Numbered from the stretch's first letter, positions 3,774 to 58,023 are shown. The stretch: DNA of 64,000 bases from an uncultured Candidatus Saccharibacteria bacterium (GCA_964532495.1 CAZHJZ010000002.1:1693-65692), one strand, 5' to 3'. Translations and numbers: made by a program. The notes: generated by a model from the letters alone, not told the origin.

Positions 3774-4754
3774 CTAGTCTTCGTCCGCTTCGTCTCCAAC
3801 CACTCCAGAATTGAGCGCATCAATGATCTTTTGGATCTGCCCGTTTTGTATAGCTGGGATGTTTGACCATGATTGGCGAATGCGGTGGTCGGTCACGCGG
3901 TCTTGCGGAAAGTTATATGTGCGGATTTTTTCGCTTCGATCCCCTGTTCCAATCTGGTTTTTACGGTCAGCTGCATATTTCTTTGCTTCCTCCTCTTCTT
4001 TCAGCGCTTGGAGTTTTGCGGTAAGGATGCTCATAGCCTTTTCTCTGTTGCCGAGCTGGCTGCGCTCAGATGTCGATCGTACGTCGATACCAGTTGGTTT
4101 GTGGATCAATCGCACTGCTGTTTCAACTTTGTTGACGTTTTGTCCTCCAGCACCTCCTGAACGTGAATATTCCATCTCAAGATCGCCTGGATCAATGACA
4201 AAGTTAACCTTCTTTCTCATTGGAAGAACGGCAACTGAAGCAGTAGAAGTGTGAATGCGGCCATTTTTTTCAGTTCCAGGAACTCGCTGTACGCGATGGA
4301 CGCCAGTTTCGTAGCGGAGATCCTTATAAACATCTTTTCCTTTAATTTCAAGAGAGACTTCTTTGTAACCGCCCACATCGCTTTTTGCTTCTTCTGTAAT
4401 CTTTGAAGACCAGCCTCGGCCTTCTGCGTATCGCTGGTACATTTCTGCCAATTCCCATGCAAACAATGATGCCTCGTCGCCTCCTGCGCCAGCTCGTACT
4501 TCCATGATGATTTCATTCGGGAATTCCTCCTCTTCTTTCTCGCTTTCCTGGATTTGTTTTACCTGCGACTCGATAGCCTCGCGCTGAATTTTTAGAGATT
4601 CGATCTCTTCTTTGCCAAGTTCAAAAAGCGATTCGTCGTCGCCAATGGCTTCGCGAACTTTTTCTTCTTCGACTTCAAGACGCTCGTATTCGTCGACGAG
4701 GTAGCTCAATCTGTGGTTTTTGCGAAGTTCATCGCGGGTGGTTATATCTAGCAT
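3774..4754 (-). CDS. prfA: peptide chain release factor 1 (PxT-type, motif PGT; GGQ present)
   Basis: 326 aa; RVQRVPGTE...GRIHTS and [11 protein letters not shown] motifs; no SPF motif (not RF2). Confidence 0.85.
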
Positions 4755-4764
4755 ACGTTATTCC

Positions 4765-4846
4765 TACACTTAGTGGCTGCACGAGCCTGGTCGAGGAAGT
4801 ATGGAAGTACCACGCCGCTCGCGGCAACCTGCTTATCAGCAGGTTG
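4765..4846 (-). ncRNA. conserved structured RNA element, copy A (hairpin with GAUA loop engulfing the rpmE stop codon; ends in the prfA Shine-Dalgarno sequence)
   Basis: 82-nt element shared with 34509-34590 and 19939-20016; conserved blocks CCGCG...GCGUrrUAC...CGAyCArG...CGUGCAGCCAyWAAGUGUA; compensatory changes in two helices. Confidence 0.5.
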
Positions 4847-4847
4847 G

Positions 4848-5120
4848 CTATTTTGACTTCTTTTTTGAAGCAGTAGCTTCCTGGCGCTTCTTGAACTTGT
4901 CCACGCGTCCTGCAACGTCAAGGAGAACTTCAGTTCCAGTATAAAAAGGATGAGATACGCTTGAAATTTCAACACGGTACAAAGGATATTCTTTGCCGTC
5001 GTCTTTCGAGATGCCAGTTTCTTTTGTAGGTACAGTTGAGTAGATAAGAAATTGAGCTCCGGAAGTCATATCTTCAAATATAACCTGGCGATAGTCTTTT
5101 GGGTGGATGTCTTTTTTCAT
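4848..5120 (-). CDS. rpmE: 50S ribosomal protein L31 (non-zinc type B)
   Basis: 90 aa, [10 protein letters not shown]... typical L31 N-terminus, no CxxC. Confidence 0.9.
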
Positions 5121-5165: not shown

Positions 5166-6569
5166 TTATCTTCTTGAAATTCCATACTGTTTAAGGTAGT
5201 CAATATCGCTCTGGATTGATGCTTTGAGCTTCATAACGCTTGTTCCATAGGAACATGAAGCACCACCGCTACCGTAGTATTTACATGCTGCTTTGATCTG
5301 AGCGCTATAGCTTGTCCCGACGGCTCCGAGGTCAGTTAGGTACATAGATGAGGCCATAAATGCGTCTTCTGCATTCCATGGATTCGCATCATGTCCGAGT
5401 GCAGTTTTGAGACGATTTACAAAAATTTTCCAGGTTGAAGCAATGAACTGAGCAGGTCCCATGGCTCCTCCATATCCTCCGGCGCTTGGGATTGGACAGG
5501 AAACAGCAGTCTTCAAGGGGTCAAGGCCAAGCTTCCCTACTATGTCTAGGAATGGAGGAATATCTCGGCTTGGTTTCATGACATTGGTAAATGTTTTTCC
5601 CGTTGTTGGATTGTACCCGGCTCCGCTTGTTGTATCGCTCAAGTAACATTTTCCCACGTTAGAACCGAGGTTTGACTCCTGGGTAAGGATTGCAAGAACG
5701 AATGCTGGATCTACTCCAGTTGCGGTGGAAGCTTTCTCTGCATACTGAAGAGCAACGTCGAATCGAATAGCTGAAGATCCTCCGGCAAGACTGAAGAGTT
5801 TCGCCTTGATTGCAGAAACTTTTGCAGCGCGGTCAGCGAGGATTGCCTGGTATTCTTTTTCTTTGTTTTTACTGATTGAAAGAAGCTGGTTCTGCTCAGC
5901 CTGGTTTTTTTCAATTTGCGTTTTGCTTTTTTCAATTGCAGCTTTTGCGTCACGCTCTTGGTCCTGTTTCTTTTCGAGCAATTGTTTTGCTGTTTCTGTT
6001 TGAGTCTTGAGGCCAAGGATCTCGTCGATAGAATTTTTTACTGCAAATTTGATCGAGTCAAAAGCAGCGACGTCGCTGTAAAATTCTGAGATGGAATGTT
6101 CAGACAAAACAAGATCTACTACGGTAGACTGGTCCATTGCGTGAGTGTTTCGGATGAGCTGAGCAAGTGACTCTTTCTCGCTGTCGATCTTTTCTTTTAA
6201 GTCTTCGATTTCGTTTGATTTGTCAGTGATTTCCCCTGAAAGCTCGCTAATAGCAAGGTTCTTGGCCTTGATATTGAGTTTGGCAGTATCGACTTGCTTC
6301 TTTAAACGAGAAATATCGCTCGTCAGCGTCTGTGATTGCCCCTGCTGATTCTTGAGTTCTGCCTGTTTCTGGGCAATTTCTGCTTCGAGGGCGGCAAGGT
6401 CGCTTTGGAGCTTCGCTCTATCTATCTGCGCTTGAGTTAGTTGAGCTTGCTGGGCGTATACGAGCGGAGAAAGTGGAAGTATGACGGCCAAAACAAAAAC
6501 CGCAAAAGCGATAACGCTTTTTGCAGTTTTTGTTTTAAGTCTCTTTTGTTGGTCAAAGAAGTTCCACAT
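5166..6569 (-). CDS. membrane-anchored coiled-coil protein with C-terminal lytic transglycosylase (SLT, family 1) domain
   Basis: 467 aa; N-terminal TM, ~250 aa coiled coil, C-terminal ...ILTQESNLG... and GAMGPAQFIASTW (ES / GLMQ-like SLT motifs). Confidence 0.6.
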   Translation of the reverse strand: MWNFFDQQKRLKTKTAKSVIAFAVFVLAVILPLSPLVYAQQAQLTQAQIDRAKLQSDLAALEAEIAQKQAELKNQQGQSQTLTSDISRLKKQVDTAKLNIKAKNLAISELSGEITDKSNEIEDLKEKIDSEKESLAQLIRNTHAMDQSTVVDLVLSEHSISEFYSDVAAFDSIKFAVKNSIDEILGLKTQTETAKQLLEKKQDQERDAKAAIEKSKTQIEKNQAEQNQLLSISKNKEKEYQAILADRAAKVSAIKAKLFSLAGGSSAIRFDVALQYAEKASTATGVDPAFVLAILTQESNLGSNVGKCYLSDTTSGAGYNPTTGKTFTNVMKPSRDIPPFLDIVGKLGLDPLKTAVSCPIPSAGGYGGAMGPAQFIASTWKIFVNRLKTALGHDANPWNAEDAFMASSMYLTDLGAVGTSYSAQIKAACKYYGSGGASCSYGTSVMKLKASIQSDIDYLKQYGISRR

Positions 6570-6593: not shown

Positions 6594-7232
6594 TTACTCC
6601 GCAGCTGGCTCCTCTTCGTCTTTCTTTCCTTTCTTTTCAACTTCGATTTTCGACAAATCGATCGGTGTAGCTGTATCTTCGACTTCTTCTACCTGTGCTG
6701 CAAGTGATGCAATAACCTCGTCCTGTCCTGCTGTTGCAGTGACTCCTGCTGGAAGTTTCAAGTCTGAAACAAGGATCTGGTCATGAAGCGCTACGAGTTT
6801 TGAGAGATCAACGGTTACTGAGTGAGGCATGTGTTTTGGAAGTCCTGAAACTTCGATTTCATGCATAACTTTAACCAAAGTACCAAGGTTTCCTTTTACT
6901 GCTGGTGACACACCGTCGAATTCGAGCGGGATAGCCACTTCGATTGGCTTGTTCATGTCGACTACGAGGAAGTCTACATGAAGAGGAGTTCCTCTCAACG
7001 GATCAAACTGGACTTCGTGGATCAAAACGTCTACTTTTTCGCTTCCTACTGTAAGAGTGACAGTTGAAGATTCGCCAGCTTCCTTGAAAGCCTTCTCGAA
7101 TTCCTTCTGTTTAATGCTAATTGGAGTTGTTTCTTTGCCTGCGCCGTAAAAAACTGCTGGAACCATGCCCCCTGTTCGGATTGCAGCGAGATTTTCTTTA
7201 GGATCGCGTGTTGTTGCTGTGATATTTGACAT
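6594..7232 (-). CDS. rplY: 50S ribosomal protein L25 / general stress protein Ctc
   Basis: Start moved to internal Met (MSNITATTRDPKENL...), 213 aa; the upstream part of the track ORF runs through GC-rich non-coding-looking sequence. Confidence 0.8.
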   Translation of the reverse strand: MSNITATTRDPKENLAAIRTGGMVPAVFYGAGKETTPISIKQKEFEKAFKEAGESSTVTLTVGSEKVDVLIHEVQFDPLRGTPLHVDFLVVDMNKPIEVAIPLEFDGVSPAVKGNLGTLVKVMHEIEVSGLPKHMPHSVTVDLSKLVALHDQILVSDLKLPAGVTATAGQDEVIASLAAQVEEVEDTATPIDLSKIEVEKKGKKDEEEPAAE

Positions 7233-7318
7233 ATTGGGATAGTTTAGCAGAAAAACCCAAAAATGCAAGGTTAGGATTAGCAGGAATATAGGATACAGGA
7301 GGATACTGCGGTGAGACA

Positions 7319-7427
7319 GTGCGCGATGTCGCCTGCCCGTGGAAGGGGCTCGCGGACTGCAGGAGCGGGAGCAAAAATCTCTCAAGATTTTATGCGCACC
7401 CTTCTACGGGCAGGCGGCGAAGCGCAC
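7319..7427 (+). ncRNA. GC-rich structured RNA candidate (6 + 20 bp closing helix, two internal hairpins), identity unknown
   Basis: 5' GUGCGC-GAU-GUCGCCUGCCCGUGGAAGGG pairs with 3' CCCUUCUACGGGCAGGCGGC-GAA-GCGCAC; two G.U pairs on plus strand would be A.C mismatches on minus, so plus-strand transcript inferred; GC content far above flanking DNA. Confidence 0.4.
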
Positions 7428-7454
7428 CCAATAAAATCATATTGGTATCTGTTG

Positions 7455-9212
7455 CTATGAATTATGCGGAACATCTACATGCGGCGGAATCATGTATTTT
7501 TCGATATTCTCCATAGTGGCGCCAACTTTTTTCTTCGGGTTGAAGATCGCAAGCGGATCGAAAATGTTCTTTGTCTGAACAAAGAGGTCATATATTTCTT
7601 TGCCATACATCTGAAGTAGAAATGGTGAACGAATAATTCCATCGTTGTGCTCAGCAGTGATAGATCCATGATACGACAAAACAAGGCTGTATACCTTTTG
7701 AGAAAGTTTGGTAACTATCATGGGCAGCTTTGGGTCGAAAGGATCGACAAGCGGAATAATATGGAAATTGCCATTTTCAGCATGTCCTGCGATTGTATAA
7801 ATGAGTGATGGGTATTCAGCTATAAGCGCATTCACCTTTGGTAAAAATTCCGACAAAAACTCGGGACGGACGATAATATCATCAATAAACGGTGCAGTTC
7901 GCAATCCTTTTACATGCTTGCGGAGCAGGTTGAAGCTATCTCGGCGCATATCCCAATATTTTTCTGCTTCGTTTTCGCTGCGAGTGATGCGCGACTGATA
8001 TCCAAATCGCTTTATTTTTTCCATTCCGAGGCGGCATTTTGCGTCGATTTCCTGTTCCGTATCGCCAGAATATTGCGTCATAAGTACCATCTTCGGAATA
8101 CCTCCGGTAAGAAGCATCCAAAATTCTGGAATGAATGAGAGTGTGAACTTGATAGTCCCCCATACTCCTTTTGATTTCAAAAAGTCGGTAAAGAATTTGA
8201 GTGCAAGCTTAAAAGTTTTGTCGTCGTATGACTCGATACTTTCAGGATTAGTAGAAAGTAATTCGTTTGCGATCTCCCCAACTTTTGAAAAGTCGGGAAG
8301 AAACACAACGAGCAATTTTGATTTCTTTTGTTTGTCTACTAATCTAAAAACTATTTCAGTGACAATGCCAAGTGTTCCCTGTGATCCGATGATGAGCTGT
8401 GAAAAATCAAAAACATCTTCGTCTTCAGTTTTTCCTCGTTTAAGAATATGCCAGAGCGAATATCCTGCAGAGTTTTTGGAAACATGCGGCTTTGATGCGC
8501 GGATTAATGCCTCATGATCTTTGATGAGTTCAAACATTTGCTTGTATGCTTTTCCTTCGAACGTTGGCTCAGTAATTTTGTTGTATAGTTCGCGGCGCGT
8601 GATGGGGCTAAAAGTGTATTCGTATCCGTCAGCAAGTACTACTTTCAGCTCTTTAACATAGTCCTCAGTTTTGCCGTAGCGAAGAGTCAATTCCCCGCCG
8701 GAATTGTTGCCCACCATTCCTCCGACGGCATTCAAAGTTTTGGATGCGGTATAACATGGAAGCAATAGATCCTGCTTGAGCGTTTCCGCTTCAAAATCAC
8801 GATAAAAACATCCCGGCTGCACGCGAGCTTCGCCGACGATTGTTACTTCATTACTATTTTCAAATAGCGGCTTGATTGTATATGGTACAGCAAGTCGCTG
8901 CACAGTGAGAATATTCCCCATATATCGAGTTGTATCCATAATGATGGAATCATTGATGGCTCCTCCTGACATGCAAGTACCCGCTGCGCGAGCAGTGATA
9001 GAAAGCGATGGGTATTTTGCTTTATTTTCGTTCACCCATTTTACGAGCACTTGTATATCCGCAGAGTCTTTTGGAAAGACGACAACCTGGGGACGGATTT
9101 CAAAAAGCGACGCATCATGGCTGTACGCAGAAAGCGTAGCATCGCTGACATCGATGTCGCCTTTGAAATTTTTCTTGAGGTCTTCAAACATTGCATAAAG
9201 TATATCATGCAA
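7455..9212 (-). CDS. FAD-linked oxidase (GlcD / D-lactate dehydrogenase-like, FAD-binding PCMH domain)
   Basis: 585 aa; N-terminal FAD_binding_4-like region and C-terminal FAD-oxidase_C-like region. Confidence 0.65.
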   Translation of the reverse strand: MHDILYAMFEDLKKNFKGDIDVSDATLSAYSHDASLFEIRPQVVVFPKDSADIQVLVKWVNENKAKYPSLSITARAAGTCMSGGAINDSIIMDTTRYMGNILTVQRLAVPYTIKPLFENSNEVTIVGEARVQPGCFYRDFEAETLKQDLLLPCYTASKTLNAVGGMVGNNSGGELTLRYGKTEDYVKELKVVLADGYEYTFSPITRRELYNKITEPTFEGKAYKQMFELIKDHEALIRASKPHVSKNSAGYSLWHILKRGKTEDEDVFDFSQLIIGSQGTLGIVTEIVFRLVDKQKKSKLLVVFLPDFSKVGEIANELLSTNPESIESYDDKTFKLALKFFTDFLKSKGVWGTIKFTLSFIPEFWMLLTGGIPKMVLMTQYSGDTEQEIDAKCRLGMEKIKRFGYQSRITRSENEAEKYWDMRRDSFNLLRKHVKGLRTAPFIDDIIVRPEFLSEFLPKVNALIAEYPSLIYTIAGHAENGNFHIIPLVDPFDPKLPMIVTKLSQKVYSLVLSYHGSITAEHNDGIIRSPFLLQMYGKEIYDLFVQTKNIFDPLAIFNPKKKVGATMENIEKYMIPPHVDVPHNS

Positions 9213-29456: not shown

Positions 29457-29484
29457 AAAAAAAACGCCGTTAGGCGTTTTTTTT
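29457..29484. terminator. bidirectional rho-independent terminator
   Basis: AAAAAAAACGCC-GUUA-GGCGUUUUUUUU. Confidence 0.8.
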
Positions 29485-31849
29485 ATTGAGTGATAGTGGA
29501 ATCTGTTTCTGGCGCTGGAGTCGGATCAGGCGTCGGCTGTGGTTCTGGTGTAAGTTCCGTCTCCATTTGAGGTTGAGTGTCAGATATTACTTCAGGATCA
29601 CTGGCTGGTGGAGTTTCTTCTGGTGTAGTTGGTATTACCGGATCATTATTGAGTTGCCCCTGACTCCCCTGGTTTTGTCCAGAGATTTGATTTTTAAGTT
29701 CAATCAATTGTCGTACATCATTCTCTGTTAAACATTGACCGTCAACACAGAGCTGGTGAGTAGTAACTTTGTCTGAAGAAACATTTCCGAGTCCGTTTGT
29801 GCTACTTCCGAGCCATGACATGAGAGTAGTTTTGAAACTGCTATCACCTATTGTATCAAAATTCTCTATGTTCTTGATCTTAATATCTAATTCACGGATT
29901 GCCTGGAGATTAAGTAAATTTAATCGCGTGTAATTTACTTGTCGATAGCCATCCTTATCAAAGATAACCAAATCTGGAAAGACTGATTCAACATTTTGAG
30001 CAAGCACGCCTAGTTGAGGTATACCGCCAATAAAACCTCGAGACTGTGCTAGTTCGTTCCAGTCAAAAGTTACTAAGTTTACTTGTACAAGCTTATCAAG
30101 CACATTTCCTACTGGCTGAATATTTGTTTTTAAGCGTTCATCTGACGAACAACTTCCACCGAGAATTCCACCGGCAAAGTCTTTCAAACAGCCATTGGAG
30201 CCTGATGTACCGACGCGTATGTCGCCAAATACTTCAAGCTTGTCTCCAGTTGATGGTGTCACCCCTAATCCAACAAAGCCCCCATCCCACACAAGGTTGT
30301 TATTCATAATAAGCGATGTGTTTGCACCAGGAGTAGTCGGGCTGCCTTGTTCCTGCTCATACCGAAGCGTAATCGCTCCATCGACAATATCAATACTGTT
30401 TCGCAAATAGTTATTGATATCGTCAGAATTTTTATTTGAAAAGAGAGATACGCCATTGTTTGTTATATATACTGCTCTGTCGTCGGCACATGGAGTAGCG
30501 CCGGGAATATTGTCGTTACATCGGAAAAATGTTGCATCATCCTTGAACGAGGTGAAGCCGTAGCGCATATTTGTATTGAGGTTTCTTGTTTCCAAAATAC
30601 CCATTGTATTTCCTCCGTTTACTTTTCCGCCAATATCAACTGAAGTGTTTGCCGCATGGTCATTCAACCAAAGTGCTGTGCCATTGTCATCAAGGGCAAG
30701 AAATGAGTCGGTATTCGCATTCATGGTGGAATTCAACTGAACAGAGCCATCATTTGCCATACCAAAGGAATTGTTTGAAGTTGCACCATTGTTGTAAACC
30801 TGGAATAACCCTGGTTTCACATTAAAACTTATATTATCAGTAGAAACAGTTCCTCCCACTTGAAAAGACTTTGCACCATCGTCCCAAGTGAAATCGCTAC
30901 TTCCGCCAAATGCTCCGGTGTTATTAAACTGAATGCTTGTATCTGGTGCAGCCGGATTAGTTGGGCTTCCGCCGCCAACCGTTGCCCATGAGAAGTGACC
31001 AGAACCGTCAGTTACCATAGCTTGGCCATTCGTGCCGTCTACTGTCGGCATAGTAAAGAATGTTCCGTCGTAGTTATAGCGAAAACCACTTCCATCAAGC
31101 TCAATTCCTGTACTAATGCCGCCAGTTGTAGTTGAAGCTAAATTTATGCCACCCGATGCAGGCATGGTTAATACTGAGCCAGTTGAATTTATACCGTTAT
31201 TTGAGAAAAGCTTAATTCGTGGGTTGCCACCATTCCATTCATTTGCAATTGTTGTTGTTTGTTGTCCCGTAAAATCTAAAAGAAAACTCTGAACAGCCTT
31301 ACCTGAACCGACGTTCAAGTCTCCATTTAGCGTTCCGTAGACATATCCGGCTGTTGGATCAACTGATGTTACTCCTGCGAATTGTTCACCACCATCAAGG
31401 AAATTATCATTGTTCCCCATCCTTGTCTCTGTGCCGTCTCCGTGCGTAAAGGTGTTCATGAAGTCGCCGGCTACATGTACTGAATATCCAGGAGTTGTGG
31501 TTCCGATACCTACCTTGCCGTCAGCGAGAACGCGCATCGCCTCAGTATTATTTGTTTTTATTACAAAAGCCTGTGAGTCTGTGGTACCAATGAAGTTAGT
31601 TCCGGGGGTTGTACCTGCATTTCCGTTCAATCCCCATCCGCCAATGTTTTGAAAACAGTTAGACGATCCAGGCGCGCACCCTGGATCAAGGATGCTGTCT
31701 CCTGCAGCATATCCTCCAGATGGCGGAGTAGTCCCGTTCGGCAATTGAGCAGCCATAACCACATACGAATACCCTGTTACCGCAAAGATGCATAGAAATA
31801 GCAAAAAATACTTATTGGCAAATATGCTGCGCCTTGGGTTCATGTACAT
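29483..31849 (-). CDS. secreted tail-fibre-like protein with C-terminal intramolecular-chaperone (peptidase S74-like) motif, paralog 1
   Basis: 788 aa; signal peptide, conserved N-terminal block AQLPNGTTPPSGGYAAGDSILDPGCAPGSSNCFQN, Gly/Asn/Thr-rich fibre-like repeats, ...GGSCSSDERLKTNI... autoprocessing motif, coiled coil, Pro/Thr/Glu-rich tail. Confidence 0.6.
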   Translation of the reverse strand: MYMNPRRSIFANKYFLLFLCIFAVTGYSYVVMAAQLPNGTTPPSGGYAAGDSILDPGCAPGSSNCFQNIGGWGLNGNAGTTPGTNFIGTTDSQAFVIKTNNTEAMRVLADGKVGIGTTTPGYSVHVAGDFMNTFTHGDGTETRMGNNDNFLDGGEQFAGVTSVDPTAGYVYGTLNGDLNVGSGKAVQSFLLDFTGQQTTTIANEWNGGNPRIKLFSNNGINSTGSVLTMPASGGINLASTTTGGISTGIELDGSGFRYNYDGTFFTMPTVDGTNGQAMVTDGSGHFSWATVGGGSPTNPAAPDTSIQFNNTGAFGGSSDFTWDDGAKSFQVGGTVSTDNISFNVKPGLFQVYNNGATSNNSFGMANDGSVQLNSTMNANTDSFLALDDNGTALWLNDHAANTSVDIGGKVNGGNTMGILETRNLNTNMRYGFTSFKDDATFFRCNDNIPGATPCADDRAVYITNNGVSLFSNKNSDDINNYLRNSIDIVDGAITLRYEQEQGSPTTPGANTSLIMNNNLVWDGGFVGLGVTPSTGDKLEVFGDIRVGTSGSNGCLKDFAGGILGGSCSSDERLKTNIQPVGNVLDKLVQVNLVTFDWNELAQSRGFIGGIPQLGVLAQNVESVFPDLVIFDKDGYRQVNYTRLNLLNLQAIRELDIKIKNIENFDTIGDSSFKTTLMSWLGSSTNGLGNVSSDKVTTHQLCVDGQCLTENDVRQLIELKNQISGQNQGSQGQLNNDPVIPTTPEETPPASDPEVISDTQPQMETELTPEPQPTPDPTPAPETDSTITQ

Positions 31850-34416: not shown

Positions 34417-34508
34417 AGTGAAAGTATACTCTCAATACAAACACCCCGCAAATAGTTTGCGGGGTGTTTGTATTGAGGCTTGGATCAGGAAATGAATCCT
34501 GTCCTACT

Positions 34509-55573: not shown

Positions 55574-56056
55574 CTATAAACCTGATTTGAAATGAACAGG
55601 AATGCTAATATATTTTTTCTGCAATCCAGGAAGCATGTTTTGTATTATGATAGTTCCCTCTTCGCTGAAGAACGAAACGGGAGGATTGAGTGTTGCTTCA
55701 AAATAGTACGGCTTTCCGTCGGCTATATTTGCTGCTGATACAGGAAGATCTACTTTTGAAATTATAAGACCATTCCCTGCAAGCAATGTCGCTGTGCCGA
55801 TGACTCCGTTTACAGGCTCCCAATCGCATCCATTGCCATATCCATATACTTTATAAGGAAAAGATACGGAAGCATCTTTCTTGGGAGCGTATAACGTTAA
55901 TCCACAATCAAGCTTTAGTATTTTTTTATAATTACCCAAGCCGAACGGATGCTGTTCGGTAAAATACCCCATGGCAAAAAGCGCTACCAAGATGCCAAGA
56001 AAAGTAAGAATGATAAACGGTATTATTCCTCTGTTTGTATTGTTTTTTATTTTCAT
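55574..56056 (-). CDS. small membrane-anchored protein (possible Ig-like extracytoplasmic domain)
   Basis: 160 aa; N-terminal TM; overlaps upstream fibre gene by 4 nt (translational coupling). Confidence 0.35.
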   Translation of the reverse strand: MKIKNNTNRGIIPFIILTFLGILVALFAMGYFTEQHPFGLGNYKKILKLDCGLTLYAPKKDASVSFPYKVYGYGNGCDWEPVNGVIGTATLLAGNGLIISKVDLPVSAANIADGKPYYFEATLNPPVSFFSEEGTIIIQNMLPGLQKKYISIPVHFKSGL

Positions 56057-58023
56057 TGGGATGGTTCCGAAACTGGTAACTGATCAGATTGGTTACTTTC
56101 AGTCGGCGGTGCGACTTCCGTCCCTGTAGCAGAATCCACTGAGGCATTTTCTGAGACTTCAGGTACTTCTGGAACTGAAACTTCTGGAACGGGAACTTGA
56201 ACTTCTGAAACTGGTACTTCTGGAACTGGATTGGATACCTGCTGGGATGAATGCAGCTGTGATTGTGAACTTAAAATCTCATCCACTTGTGAACGGTCAA
56301 GGCATGTTTCTCCGTTCGCATCCGCTACACAGATTTTTTCAGTAGTGAGCTTGTGTGCAAAGATATTTTGGATACCATTCCCTGCACTGCTCAACCACGT
56401 TGCTACTTGAGAAATCAATGAATCTGCACTGAGGTTTGAAGAGCTCTCTAGATGCTTTATTTTAATATCAAGTTCTCGAACCGCTTCTACTAAAAGTGGT
56501 GTCACTCCTGCGTAGTTTGCCTGCAAATAGCCATTTGGCGCTGTTGAAACAAGTTGTGGATAGATGGACTGCAGGTTTTGTGCAATAAATCCGATGTGTG
56601 TATCGCTATCTTGCCCCTCTTTCCAATTATAAGTCACTGTTCTCAGTTGCGTGAGTGTTTCGAGGGTTGAAGGTGGTAAATCAGTAATATTTTTTTTCAA
56701 TCGTTCATCAGAAGAACAAGAGATACCTGCTCCTGATGTCGTGTTGACACTACATGAGGTGAAACCGCTACCGGTAATCACCATATCGTTGATTGGATAC
56801 AAAGTTGAACCGATAACCATTTGATTGCTTGCGGTTATCTGTGCCGCGCGGCCAATAGCTATAGAAGCGTTGAGGCCAGGTGCACTTGCAGCAGAGTCTG
56901 ATCCAATAAAGATATTATTACTCCCGGTTTCATTGTTTGCTCCAGCAGTGTCACCCAGTGCTACGTTAAATGAACCCGATGTATTGTTTTGTCCTGCCAA
57001 TGCTCCAAGAAACATGTTGTTTGACCCGAGACTATTCAATTTTCCCGCCTGATAACCAATAATGACATTTGAAAATGGAGAGGTAGTGTTTGCGCCGGCT
57101 TCATAACCAAGCATTACTGAGTTTCCGCCAGTAAGAGTTGAACCTGCCCCCCAGCCAATCAAAGTATTGGCTCCTTGTGCGTCCTGGCTCGTACCTGCGA
57201 ATGCGCCAATAGAGACTGAACGCTGATAGGTTGCCCCTACAGCGCCTATGCCCGCCTGCTTACCAATAGAAATGTTGTCTGTGCCGGAAGTGTTTTTTCC
57301 AGCTGAAAGTCCAATGTTAAGTTTTCCTGCAAAAGAAATATCGAGTATGTTATCAGTTGTTGTTGATCCAAAAGTAAAGCTGCGTGCTACGTCATCAAGT
57401 AAAAATCTCGTACCATTCGCAGCAATATTTGTATCACCGAGAGAAACAGTTCCAGTAGTTCGGCCAATAATTGTTTGAGCAGTGTCATTCACTTCAATCA
57501 ATGTACTATTTCTTTGATCATCTATATCACCAAGCTGAACAAGATCATCTGGCACATGAACGAAAAATGAAGAATACTGGCCGTCATTTACCCCGAAATC
57601 AACCGCGGTTGCACCTACAGTAGAAGCACCGTCATCAAGGTACAAAACTGTCCCATTTCCAGCACTATTGACATCTCCTGCAAAAAACGTACTCGTTGCG
57701 GTATCAATTGTAGTAGCTTTTGTCGCCGCATCTCTCATAAAACCAGCATCGCCGAATACGTTTCCTGAATTATCTGTATACAGCACTTGATCTGCTGCGC
57801 CTCCGATTATTTTTTGTCCAATATAAATACCCGAATTCTGAAAGCAATTTAATGAACCTGGCGCGCAACCCGGTTGAAGAATACTATCGCCAGCATTATA
57901 TCCTCCGCTTGGAGGAAGCGTCCCATCGGCCAGCTGTGCTGAAAATACGACCACTCCATATCCTAGGACGGAGAGAATAGTGACACAAACAGCAAGCAGC
58001 TTCTTATGAGGAATGAGTGTCAT
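56053..58023 (-). CDS. secreted tail-fibre-like protein with C-terminal intramolecular-chaperone (peptidase S74-like) motif, paralog 2
   Basis: 656 aa; signal peptide; AQLADGTLPPSGGYNAGDSILQPGCAPGSLNCFQN; Gly/Asn/Thr repeats; ...GAGISCSSDERLKKNI...; coiled coil; C-terminal (PEVxV)n repeats. Confidence 0.6.
   Translation of the reverse strand: MTLIPHKKLLAVCVTILSVLGYGVVVFSAQLADGTLPPSGGYNAGDSILQPGCAPGSLNCFQNSGIYIGQKIIGGAADQVLYTDNSGNVFGDAGFMRDAATKATTIDTATSTFFAGDVNSAGNGTVLYLDDGASTVGATAVDFGVNDGQYSSFFVHVPDDLVQLGDIDDQRNSTLIEVNDTAQTIIGRTTGTVSLGDTNIAANGTRFLLDDVARSFTFGSTTTDNILDISFAGKLNIGLSAGKNTSGTDNISIGKQAGIGAVGATYQRSVSIGAFAGTSQDAQGANTLIGWGAGSTLTGGNSVMLGYEAGANTTSPFSNVIIGYQAGKLNSLGSNNMFLGALAGQNNTSGSFNVALGDTAGANNETGSNNIFIGSDSAASAPGLNASIAIGRAAQITASNQMVIGSTLYPINDMVITGSGFTSCSVNTTSGAGISCSSDERLKKNITDLPPSTLETLTQLRTVTYNWKEGQDSDTHIGFIAQNLQSIYPQLVSTAPNGYLQANYAGVTPLLVEAVRELDIKIKHLESSSNLSADSLISQVATWLSSAGNGIQNIFAHKLTTEKICVADANGETCLDRSQVDEILSSQSQLHSSQQVSNPVPEVPVSEVQVPVPEVSVPEVPEVSENASVDSATGTEVAPPTESNQSDQLPVSEPSQ
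56150..56235 (-). repeat. imperfect 15-18-nt tandem repeats (coding, PEVPVSEV low-complexity tail of fibre protein 2)
   Basis: repeated (u)acuucuggaac(u/g)g(a/g)a units. Confidence 0.5.

Follow-up and report, generated by a model that had tools for sequence, protein, structure and literature searches.

Dispersed intergenic palindromes of ~100-130 bp, among them ERIC, BOX, Correia and RPE, lie in either orientation near gene ends, and their presence is variable. They form a long hairpin upon transcription, and their copies, the terminal arms above all, are alike in sequence. Apart from the universal ones, few non-coding RNAs have, to our knowledge, been described in bacteria of the candidate phyla radiation. 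Orphan structured RNA motifs of the Weinberg/Breaker type, obtained through comparative genomics, are characterized by covarying helices and conserved loop nucleotides (PMC5737381). The element analyzed in this study is closest to these orphan motifs in the type of evidence, and is likewise intergenic, about 100 nt long and of narrow phylogenetic range; however, its closing helix, P1, is unusually long (15-32 bp across the family), and its site and orientation shift between close relatives. In behavior, it is closest to ERIC and BOX, from which it differs in that the arms of its copies are unrelated, whereas the interior is conserved with compensatory changes.

The locus between the oxidase gene and rplY

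The window, a stretch of 64,000 nucleotides analyzed at its full length, has a housekeeping gene content comprising ATP synthase, ribosomal proteins, pentose-phosphate and glycolytic enzymes, dnaK and similar genes. The element lies in a 222-nt gap between rplY and an oxidase gene, 27 nt from the oxidase stop codon. The initial annotation had pointed to a GC-rich segment of ~109 nt between these two genes, and both neighbors were named correctly according to Pfam. The features of the locus, in window coordinates, are as follows.

6594-7232, minus strand: rplY (ribosomal protein L25/Ctc; Pfam PF01386 and PF14693)
7230-7232, minus strand: ATG start of rplY, 8 nt from the -10 with no ribosome-binding site between
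7241-7268, minus strand: promoter-like block of rplY, outside the element (-35 TTGCAT at 7263-7268, 16-nt spacer, -10 TAAACT at 7241-7246)
7319-7427, plus strand: whole element, copy W, consisting of P1, hairpin A and hairpin B (from the fold, the inverted repeat and model R2, 69.8 bits over 7319-7426)
7319-7347, plus strand: 5' arm of P1 (GUGCGC at 7319-7324, loop GAU at 7325-7327, GUCGCCUGCCCGUGGAAGGG at 7328-7347)
7349-7369, plus strand: hairpin A, with stem 1 formed by CUCGC 7349-7353 and GCGGG 7365-7369
7354-7356 opposite 7363-7364, plus strand: internal loop of hairpin A, GGA opposite GA (family alignments A6 and A8)
7357-7362, plus strand: tip of hairpin A, reduced to one pair, C-UGCA-G (family alignment)
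7371-7395, plus strand: hairpin B overall, with the base formed by GCA 7371-7373 and UGC 7393-7395
7374-7380 with 7385-7391, plus strand: upper stem of hairpin B, AAAAUCU with AGAUUUU (family alignment)
7381-7384 and 7392, plus strand: loop CUCA and bulged A7392 of hairpin B (family alignment)
7399-7427, plus strand: 3' arm of P1 (CCCUUCUACGGGCAGGCGGC at 7399-7418, loop GAA at 7419-7421, GCGCAC at 7422-7427)
7455-9212, minus strand: FAD-linked oxidase, ORF from a TTG start (Pfam PF01565 and PF02913)

The oxidase is 100% identical to a database protein of 578 aa (P0001), and its homologues come from MAGs of Parcubacteria, Paceibacteria and Nomurabacteria within the candidate phyla radiation. 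A JGI metagenome contig and a Logan contig contain the same sequence, with an intergenic gap that is 100% identical. With a GC content of 63%, compared to 43% for the window, the element forms the top GC peak of the non-coding window sequence. A repeat finder delimited two arms of 29 nt (7319-7347 and 7399-7427) that are 83% complementary and spaced by 51 nt. These arms pair as 6 bp, a 3x3 loop (GAU/GAA) and 20 bp including two G.U pairs, in agreement with the closing helix and symmetric loop proposed in the initial annotation; the MFE fold of the window copy has 29 closing pairs, three of them G.U. Folded as plus-strand RNA, the element reached -69.2 kcal/mol (z = -8.59), a value that none of 200 shuffled sequences attained, while the minus-strand fold was weaker (-56.4 kcal/mol, z = -5.81).

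The arm sequence has no second occurrence in the 64-kb window, and a plasmid search with the element returned no match. When the whole window was scanned against Rfam 15 at gathering score, only a tRNA was recovered; for the element, a scan at E <= 10 yielded microRNA-type noise only, in line with its initial description as unassigned in Rfam. Rfam E-value scans of three different family copies likewise gave nothing relevant. On the plus strand, neither a convincing promoter upstream nor a U-tract terminator downstream of the element was observed. The window copy has a U-tract on neither strand, and the A- and U-tracts that flank P1 in other copies are missing there.

Immediately 5' of the element (7270-7305, plus strand) lie four AGGA(T/A) repeats at a spacing of ~8-10 nt, which were not noticed upstream of other family copies. 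They include an AGGAGG located 8 nt before GTG 7311, and this GTG opens a 50-codon ORF that spans the hairpin. Neither this ORF nor a second one at 7319-7516 had homologues in a peptide query, and both were treated as spurious; a six-frame peptide query for copies hidden in called proteins gave no match. Long hairpins also occur elsewhere in the window, namely at 34431-34477 after dnaK (22 bp, perfect) and at 6490-6536 after rplY (18 bp, 94% complementary), and long-stem terminators seem to be usual in this genome. Two large minus-strand proteins, at 29483-31849 and 56053-58023, contain a Peptidase_S74 (endosialidase chaperone) domain within the otherwise housekeeping region. This domain is found in phage tail fibers.

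The promoter-like block upstream of rplY has the same geometry in the related loci L085, L088 and L164, where TTGC(A/T)T, 16 nt, TAnnnT and 8 nt precede the ATG. Together with a block at ~7050-7090 in L085, this arrangement suggests a putative promoter for leaderless rplY and rpmE mRNAs in the clade. Given that the block stands between the element and the rplY ATG, the element would lie outside the rplY transcript.

A covarying family with a conserved interior

A blastn search of the gap against 80 related loci found nothing. In contrast, a covariance model built from the single sequence gave a weak match in L085, which, with inspection, led to the family: window positions 7371-7395 and L085:6985-7009 have 25 of 25 bases in common (GCAAAAATCTCTCAAGATTTTATGC). 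The L085 copy is located two genes away, in the gap between the SLT-like gene and rpmE, and its orientation to the genes is opposite to that in the window. A weaker profile match in L060 contained hairpin B with a compensated stem (AAAACCC-CUCA-GGGUUUU), and a second, inverted copy adjoins the first in the same locus. A hairpin-B descriptor, defined as (G/A)CA, a stem of 7 bp, a tetraloop with A at its end, a bulged A and UG(C/U), was run on both strands of 714 kb of related DNA and matched family copies only; more copies were gained with a relaxed form of it. Furthermore, model R2, seeded with eight copies, recovered all eight together with a ninth, L053, from outside the seed (65.7 bits, E = 6e-13), and no further match in 668 kb exceeded 19 bits. 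Among 719 kb of viral loci preselected by a hairpin-B-like pattern, which served as a control, there were 0 family matches, and viral scans with the arm, the hairpin-B core or a degenerate hairpin-B pattern produced chance matches or none.

The family thus delimited has nine distinct copies of 99-119 nt: that of the window, that of L085 (also present in L086, L087 and L270), two in L060, and one each in L023, L021, L018, L074 and L053. P1 is AT-rich or GC-rich, and its sequence is unrelated between copies. Hairpin A has a first stem of 3-5 bp and a second of 1-4 bp, separated by a 5'-G(C/G)A internal loop opposite GA-3', and its loop is GACG, GACUG, GUCG, GGCG or UGCA. A short joiner, often GA, leads to hairpin B, whose base pairs GCA (occasionally ACA or UAA) with mostly UGC; above it stand a 7-bp AU-rich stem and a tetraloop ending in A (CUCA, ACCA, AGCA or AGUA), and the bulged A is missing in two copies. 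The most conserved part of the family corresponds to hairpin B at 7374-7391. The window copy has this hairpin, the internal loop of hairpin A and the enclosing 29-bp closing helix. The family is new, with no counterpart in Rfam 15 and no previous annotation, and a literature search for Patescibacteria RNAs or repeats found nothing relevant.

The comparison also refined the inner fold of the window copy. Of the two hairpins in the initial annotation, the AU-rich one (7374-7391) stands as given; hairpin A exists as well, but in a slightly different register, with CUCGC 7349-7353 pairing with GCGGG 7365-7369, and with G7371 and C7372 belonging to the base of hairpin B.

To quantify covariation, we aligned the nine copies over 17 inner pairs and compared them with 500 shuffles and with slid controls. 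Standard pairs filled 96.6% of the cells, compared to 73.7% after shuffling and 32-54% in the slid controls, and 13 of the 17 pairs had changed on both sides (7.4 when shuffled, 2-5 in slid controls). The covariation score was 0.632, whereas the shuffled score was 0.223, with 0 of 500 shuffles reaching the observed value, and the slid controls gave at most 0.149; these shuffle statistics overstate independence, since only nine copies are available and several are related by descent. Both inner hairpins covary, as double-sided changes were observed in two of three and four of four pairs in helices 1 and 2 of hairpin A, and compensatory changes in seven of ten pairs of hairpin B across the family. 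The conservation with covariation in relatives that the initial annotation had put forward as a check was therefore found.

P1 differs from the interior in that its sequence is free in every copy while its pairing is kept. Between the orthologous copies of L021 and L053, 17 of 22 P1 pairs are identical, three have changed on one side via G.U and two on both sides. The L018 and L074 copies have the inner 13 pairs in common, with about six double changes further out, as counted after a three-pair offset had been corrected by eye. Between orthologous copies (Z2/U and V1/V2), the changes that preserve P1 are thus compensatory or G.U-mediated.

A further model, R3, was seeded without the window and L085 copies. 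On the 64-kb window, it returned a single match, at 7351-7402 on the plus strand (28.3 bits), with an E of about 0.01 that is modest and rests on a rough calibration; the L085 copy was found with a similar score. Hence, the family membership of the window copy is independent of its inclusion in the seed. Collectively, these findings establish the strand-specific, covarying three-way-junction element as real.

Strand, placement and turnover of the copies

The MFE folds of the nine copies contain 22 G.U pairs in the window-plus orientation, compared to three in the reverse complement, and the numbers of A.C single mismatches are one and four, respectively. The window-plus orientation was more stable in eight of the nine copies, by 3.7-15.3 kcal/mol, so that the choice of the plus strand, originally made from the G.U pairs of a single copy, holds for the family. 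The G.U bias is alike in both orientations to the neighboring genes (11 G.U in sense copies, 9 G.U in antisense copies); therefore, a mutation bias linked to transcription or replication is no explanation. These data demonstrate selection on the window's plus strand in its single-stranded form, and a single-stranded DNA intermediate and an RNA explain the strand bias equally well.

The genes around the window copy belong to a conserved order of oxidase, rplY, a ~470-aa SLT-like gene, rpmE (L31) and prfB. In about 50 of 80 related loci rplY follows the oxidase gene, and the complete order is present in the closest relatives. In the window, prfB consists of two overlapping minus-strand ORFs, 4748-4975 and 3774-4754 (3774-4975 overall), a split that we take to be the expected outcome of the programmed +1 frameshift of RF2.

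Presence, site and orientation of the copies vary among relatives. Five copies follow rpmE, three of them sense and two antisense; prfB is on the other side in L021, L023 and L053, and the L018 and L074 loci end before prfB. One copy is situated, sense, in the SLT-to-L31 gap, the window copy is antisense in the oxidase-to-rplY gap, and the remaining two form the inverted tandem pair of L060, which is flanked by pfkB and a convergent transketolase gene. The distance to a stop codon is 3-27 nt in all copies, and the next promoter lies beyond. With respect to the gene that ends beside them, five of the nine are antisense, so that a role as RNA needs a promoter that has not been seen. We counted one copy in the 64-kb window and one in 21.7 kb of the L085 species.

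The orthologous gap of the nearest syntenic relatives has no hairpin: between oxidase and rplY it measures 93 nt in L085, L086 and L087 (oxidase 81% identical), 46 nt in L088 (78% identical) and 40 nt in L164 (81% identical). We therefore regard the element as an insertion in the window's lineage. With this absence, and with copies located in other gaps, the idea of a conserved gene at this site is not supported. Similarly, only three of 25 delimited L31-to-prfB gaps contain a copy (L021, L023 and L053). Seven of these 25 gaps were not measurable, and the other measurable ones are occupied by plain terminators with long stems of roughly 8-16 bp, most of them with A- and U-tracts, or by unrelated branched hairpins. 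In L058, the closing arms of the L021 and L053 copies recur in inverted form around a divergent interior. L050, L048, L072, L058 and L019 have, in this gap, large branched hairpins (93-188 nt) with long closing stems, which fall into several unrelated kinds. The gain, loss and inversion of copies beside stop codons is thus the behavior of a duplicating or mobile structured element rather than that of a fixed single-copy gene.

In copies V1, V2, X, X0 and Z, an A-tract precedes P1 and a U-tract follows it. Because of these flanking tracts, P1 may double as a bidirectional terminator in several copies.

Readings of the element

We consider it probable, at roughly 60%, that 7319-7427 is a copy of a new structured RNA family of Parcubacteria and Paceibacteria that gains and loses copies. 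Most simply, the folded molecule would be a plus-strand transcript, antisense to both neighboring genes. Its conserved loop, bulge and GA-rich internal loop could act as recognition surfaces for a protein or RNA partner, and the long helix P1 may confer stability or provide an RNase III-type processing site. Insertion of the window copy would have placed it past the oxidase stop codon and ahead of the leaderless-type rplY promoter, where it may also insulate the two transcription units. We favor an RNA because conserved internal-loop, bulge and loop nucleotides within a three-way junction resemble the recognition sites of RNA-protein or RNA-RNA contacts.

Chief among the rivals is a mobile, non-autonomous DNA element of the REP or IS200/IS605-derived kind, in which a plus-strand single-stranded DNA hairpin is recognized by a transposase encoded elsewhere and the RNA structure is incidental. 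Such an element would account for the insertion polymorphism between close relatives, for the different gaps and both orientations, including the adjacent inverted pair of L060, and for the strand-specific pairing, which single-stranded DNA also explains; moreover, related genomes show insertions of other GC-rich palindromes, some of them within coding sequence. A conserved hairpin with a bulged base may also resemble the hairpins that HUH-type transposases bind. Like REPs and REPINs mobilized by RAYT, the family has a strand-specific hairpin with a bulged base in a conserved stem and an intergenic position after genes; unlike them, it is a three-way junction whose arm sequences are not conserved, and the window has no RAYT. 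Its terminal arms cannot be aligned between copies, even between the two copies of one genome (X and X0), a pattern opposite to that of MITEs and REPINs. No target-site duplication flanks 7319-7427, where an 11-nt repeat at 7230 and 7438 is at an estimated chance level and does not bracket the element, and the 68 window ORFs include no transposase, RAYT or integrase. The two L060 copies differ by so many compensatory changes that they are better seen as old, selected paralogues than as products of recent transposition, and the architecture of a three-way junction whose internal-loop nucleotides are conserved is one typically seen in RNA. On balance, we regard a mobile DNA hairpin as unlikely, if still to be taken seriously. 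More speculative, and improbable in our estimate, is a self-propagating class of structured RNA, either a small ribozyme or an RNA or single-stranded DNA that would insert at gene ends and bring or create its own long closing helix, with hairpin B as the recognition or catalytic core in both cases; if true, it would explain at once why the interior is conserved, why the arms are free in sequence and why sites and orientations turn over. An integron attC site was rejected, as the ends GTGCGCG... and ...AAGCGCAC contain neither the R'' RYYYAAC nor the R' GTTRRRY core and the window has no integrase.

It appears quite improbable that the element is only an elaborated hairpin for termination or insulation between rplY and the oxidase gene, with a branched tip that has no function of its own. 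Such a role agrees with the position of every copy, 3-27 nt from a stop codon with the next promoter further on, with the A- and U-tracts around P1 in five copies, which are like those of bidirectional terminators, and with the plain long-stem terminators that fill the L31-to-prfB gap in other genomes. However, the window copy, with its 51-nt interior, has no U-tract on either strand, and close relatives manage with no hairpin at all in the oxidase-to-rplY gap. The intrinsic terminators of the same genomes share with the family the location directly after stop codons and the long stems, but not the conserved, covarying, branched interior of 50-60 nt; a terminator needs neither conserved loop, bulge and internal-loop nucleotides nor covarying inner hairpins, and one strand's fold is selected whatever the direction of the gene to be terminated. 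The resemblance to Y RNAs suggested by the initial annotation fares worse. Size (about 110 nt) and shape, a small branched interior closed by a long helix of the two ends, do recall a Ro60/Rsr-associated Y RNA, or else an SRP or 6S RNA too divergent for Rfam. Yet no Y RNA or YrlA model matched at gathering score or at E <= 10, three family copies had no Rfam match even at E <= 10, and inspection revealed neither a tRNA-like module nor a Ro-binding bulged helix. The proposed search for a partner gene (Ro/Rsr, reverse transcriptase or other) found no TROVE-domain (rsr), reverse transcriptase or other candidate partner gene among the 68 ORFs of the 64-kb window. That the element is not an SRP RNA, as originally stated, agrees with the lack of an Rfam match and of the domain-IV motif (GNRA tetraloop with symmetric and asymmetric loops) by inspection; moreover, its absence from most related loci at these sites and its duplication in L060 do not fit a universal single-copy RNA. 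6S RNA, too, gave no Rfam match to the element. We consider this whole group of known RNAs very improbable. Hardly credible, finally, is an autoregulatory rplY 5' leader mimicking the 5S rRNA site bound by L25. The element is upstream of rplY on the map; however, its folded strand is antisense to rplY, other copies are not beside rplY, and rplY has no such element in the close relatives L085, L088 and L164. As the element is located upstream of the rplY promoter-like block, which is separated from the ATG by 8 nt that lack a ribosome-binding site, and 27 nt past the oxidase stop codon, a leader was ruled out.

The genomes of the candidate phyla radiation are reduced and leave little room for non-functional DNA; therefore, the family should be either a regulatory or protein-binding RNA or a mobile element with free arms and a conserved interior. 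Either reading would help in the study of gene expression and genome dynamics in a part of the bacterial tree about which little is understood, and the covariance models from this analysis provide a direct search route into all Patescibacteria genomes.

In addition to the family, the searches touched on other palindromic repeats. A metagenome scan with a two-arm pattern retrieved six high-GC soil contigs (L089-L094) with the palindromic repeat CCGTTCGCCCTGAGCCCGTCGAAGGG followed by its inverted copy. The window arm agrees with this repeat at 12 of 13 core bases and at TTCGCC in register, although the likeness of the core is imposed by the search pattern. With nhmmer, an arm profile of the CTGAGC..GTCGAAGGG repeat from Sphingobium and Comamonas missed 7319-7427 even at E <= 100, and because this independent profile misses the window copy, homology to the soil repeat was dropped. 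The repeat itself, CCGTTCGCCCTGAGCC(T/C)GTCGAAGGG followed by its inverted copy, is widespread, high in GC, variable in its interior and unannotated. It occurs on Sphingobium megaplasmids (L166-L170), in 8-13 places per record in most, and on the Comamonas plasmid L171, and fragments of it are present in the Parcubacteria loci L014 and L070; literature on peptide signatures of the repeat yielded nothing relevant.

GC-rich palindromes of related genomes also interrupt conserved coding sequence, apparently in frame, at L021:4960-5038, L033:3314-3393 and L014:3749-3805, and recall the Rickettsia palindromic elements. The L021 palindrome lies in rplY, with arms CCCCGTTAGAAGT and ACTTCTAACGGGG, and adds about 25 aa, while those of L033 and L014 are carried by the FAD-oxidase gene. 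An intergenic element with the same CCGTTAGAGG arms was observed at L024:1987-2111.
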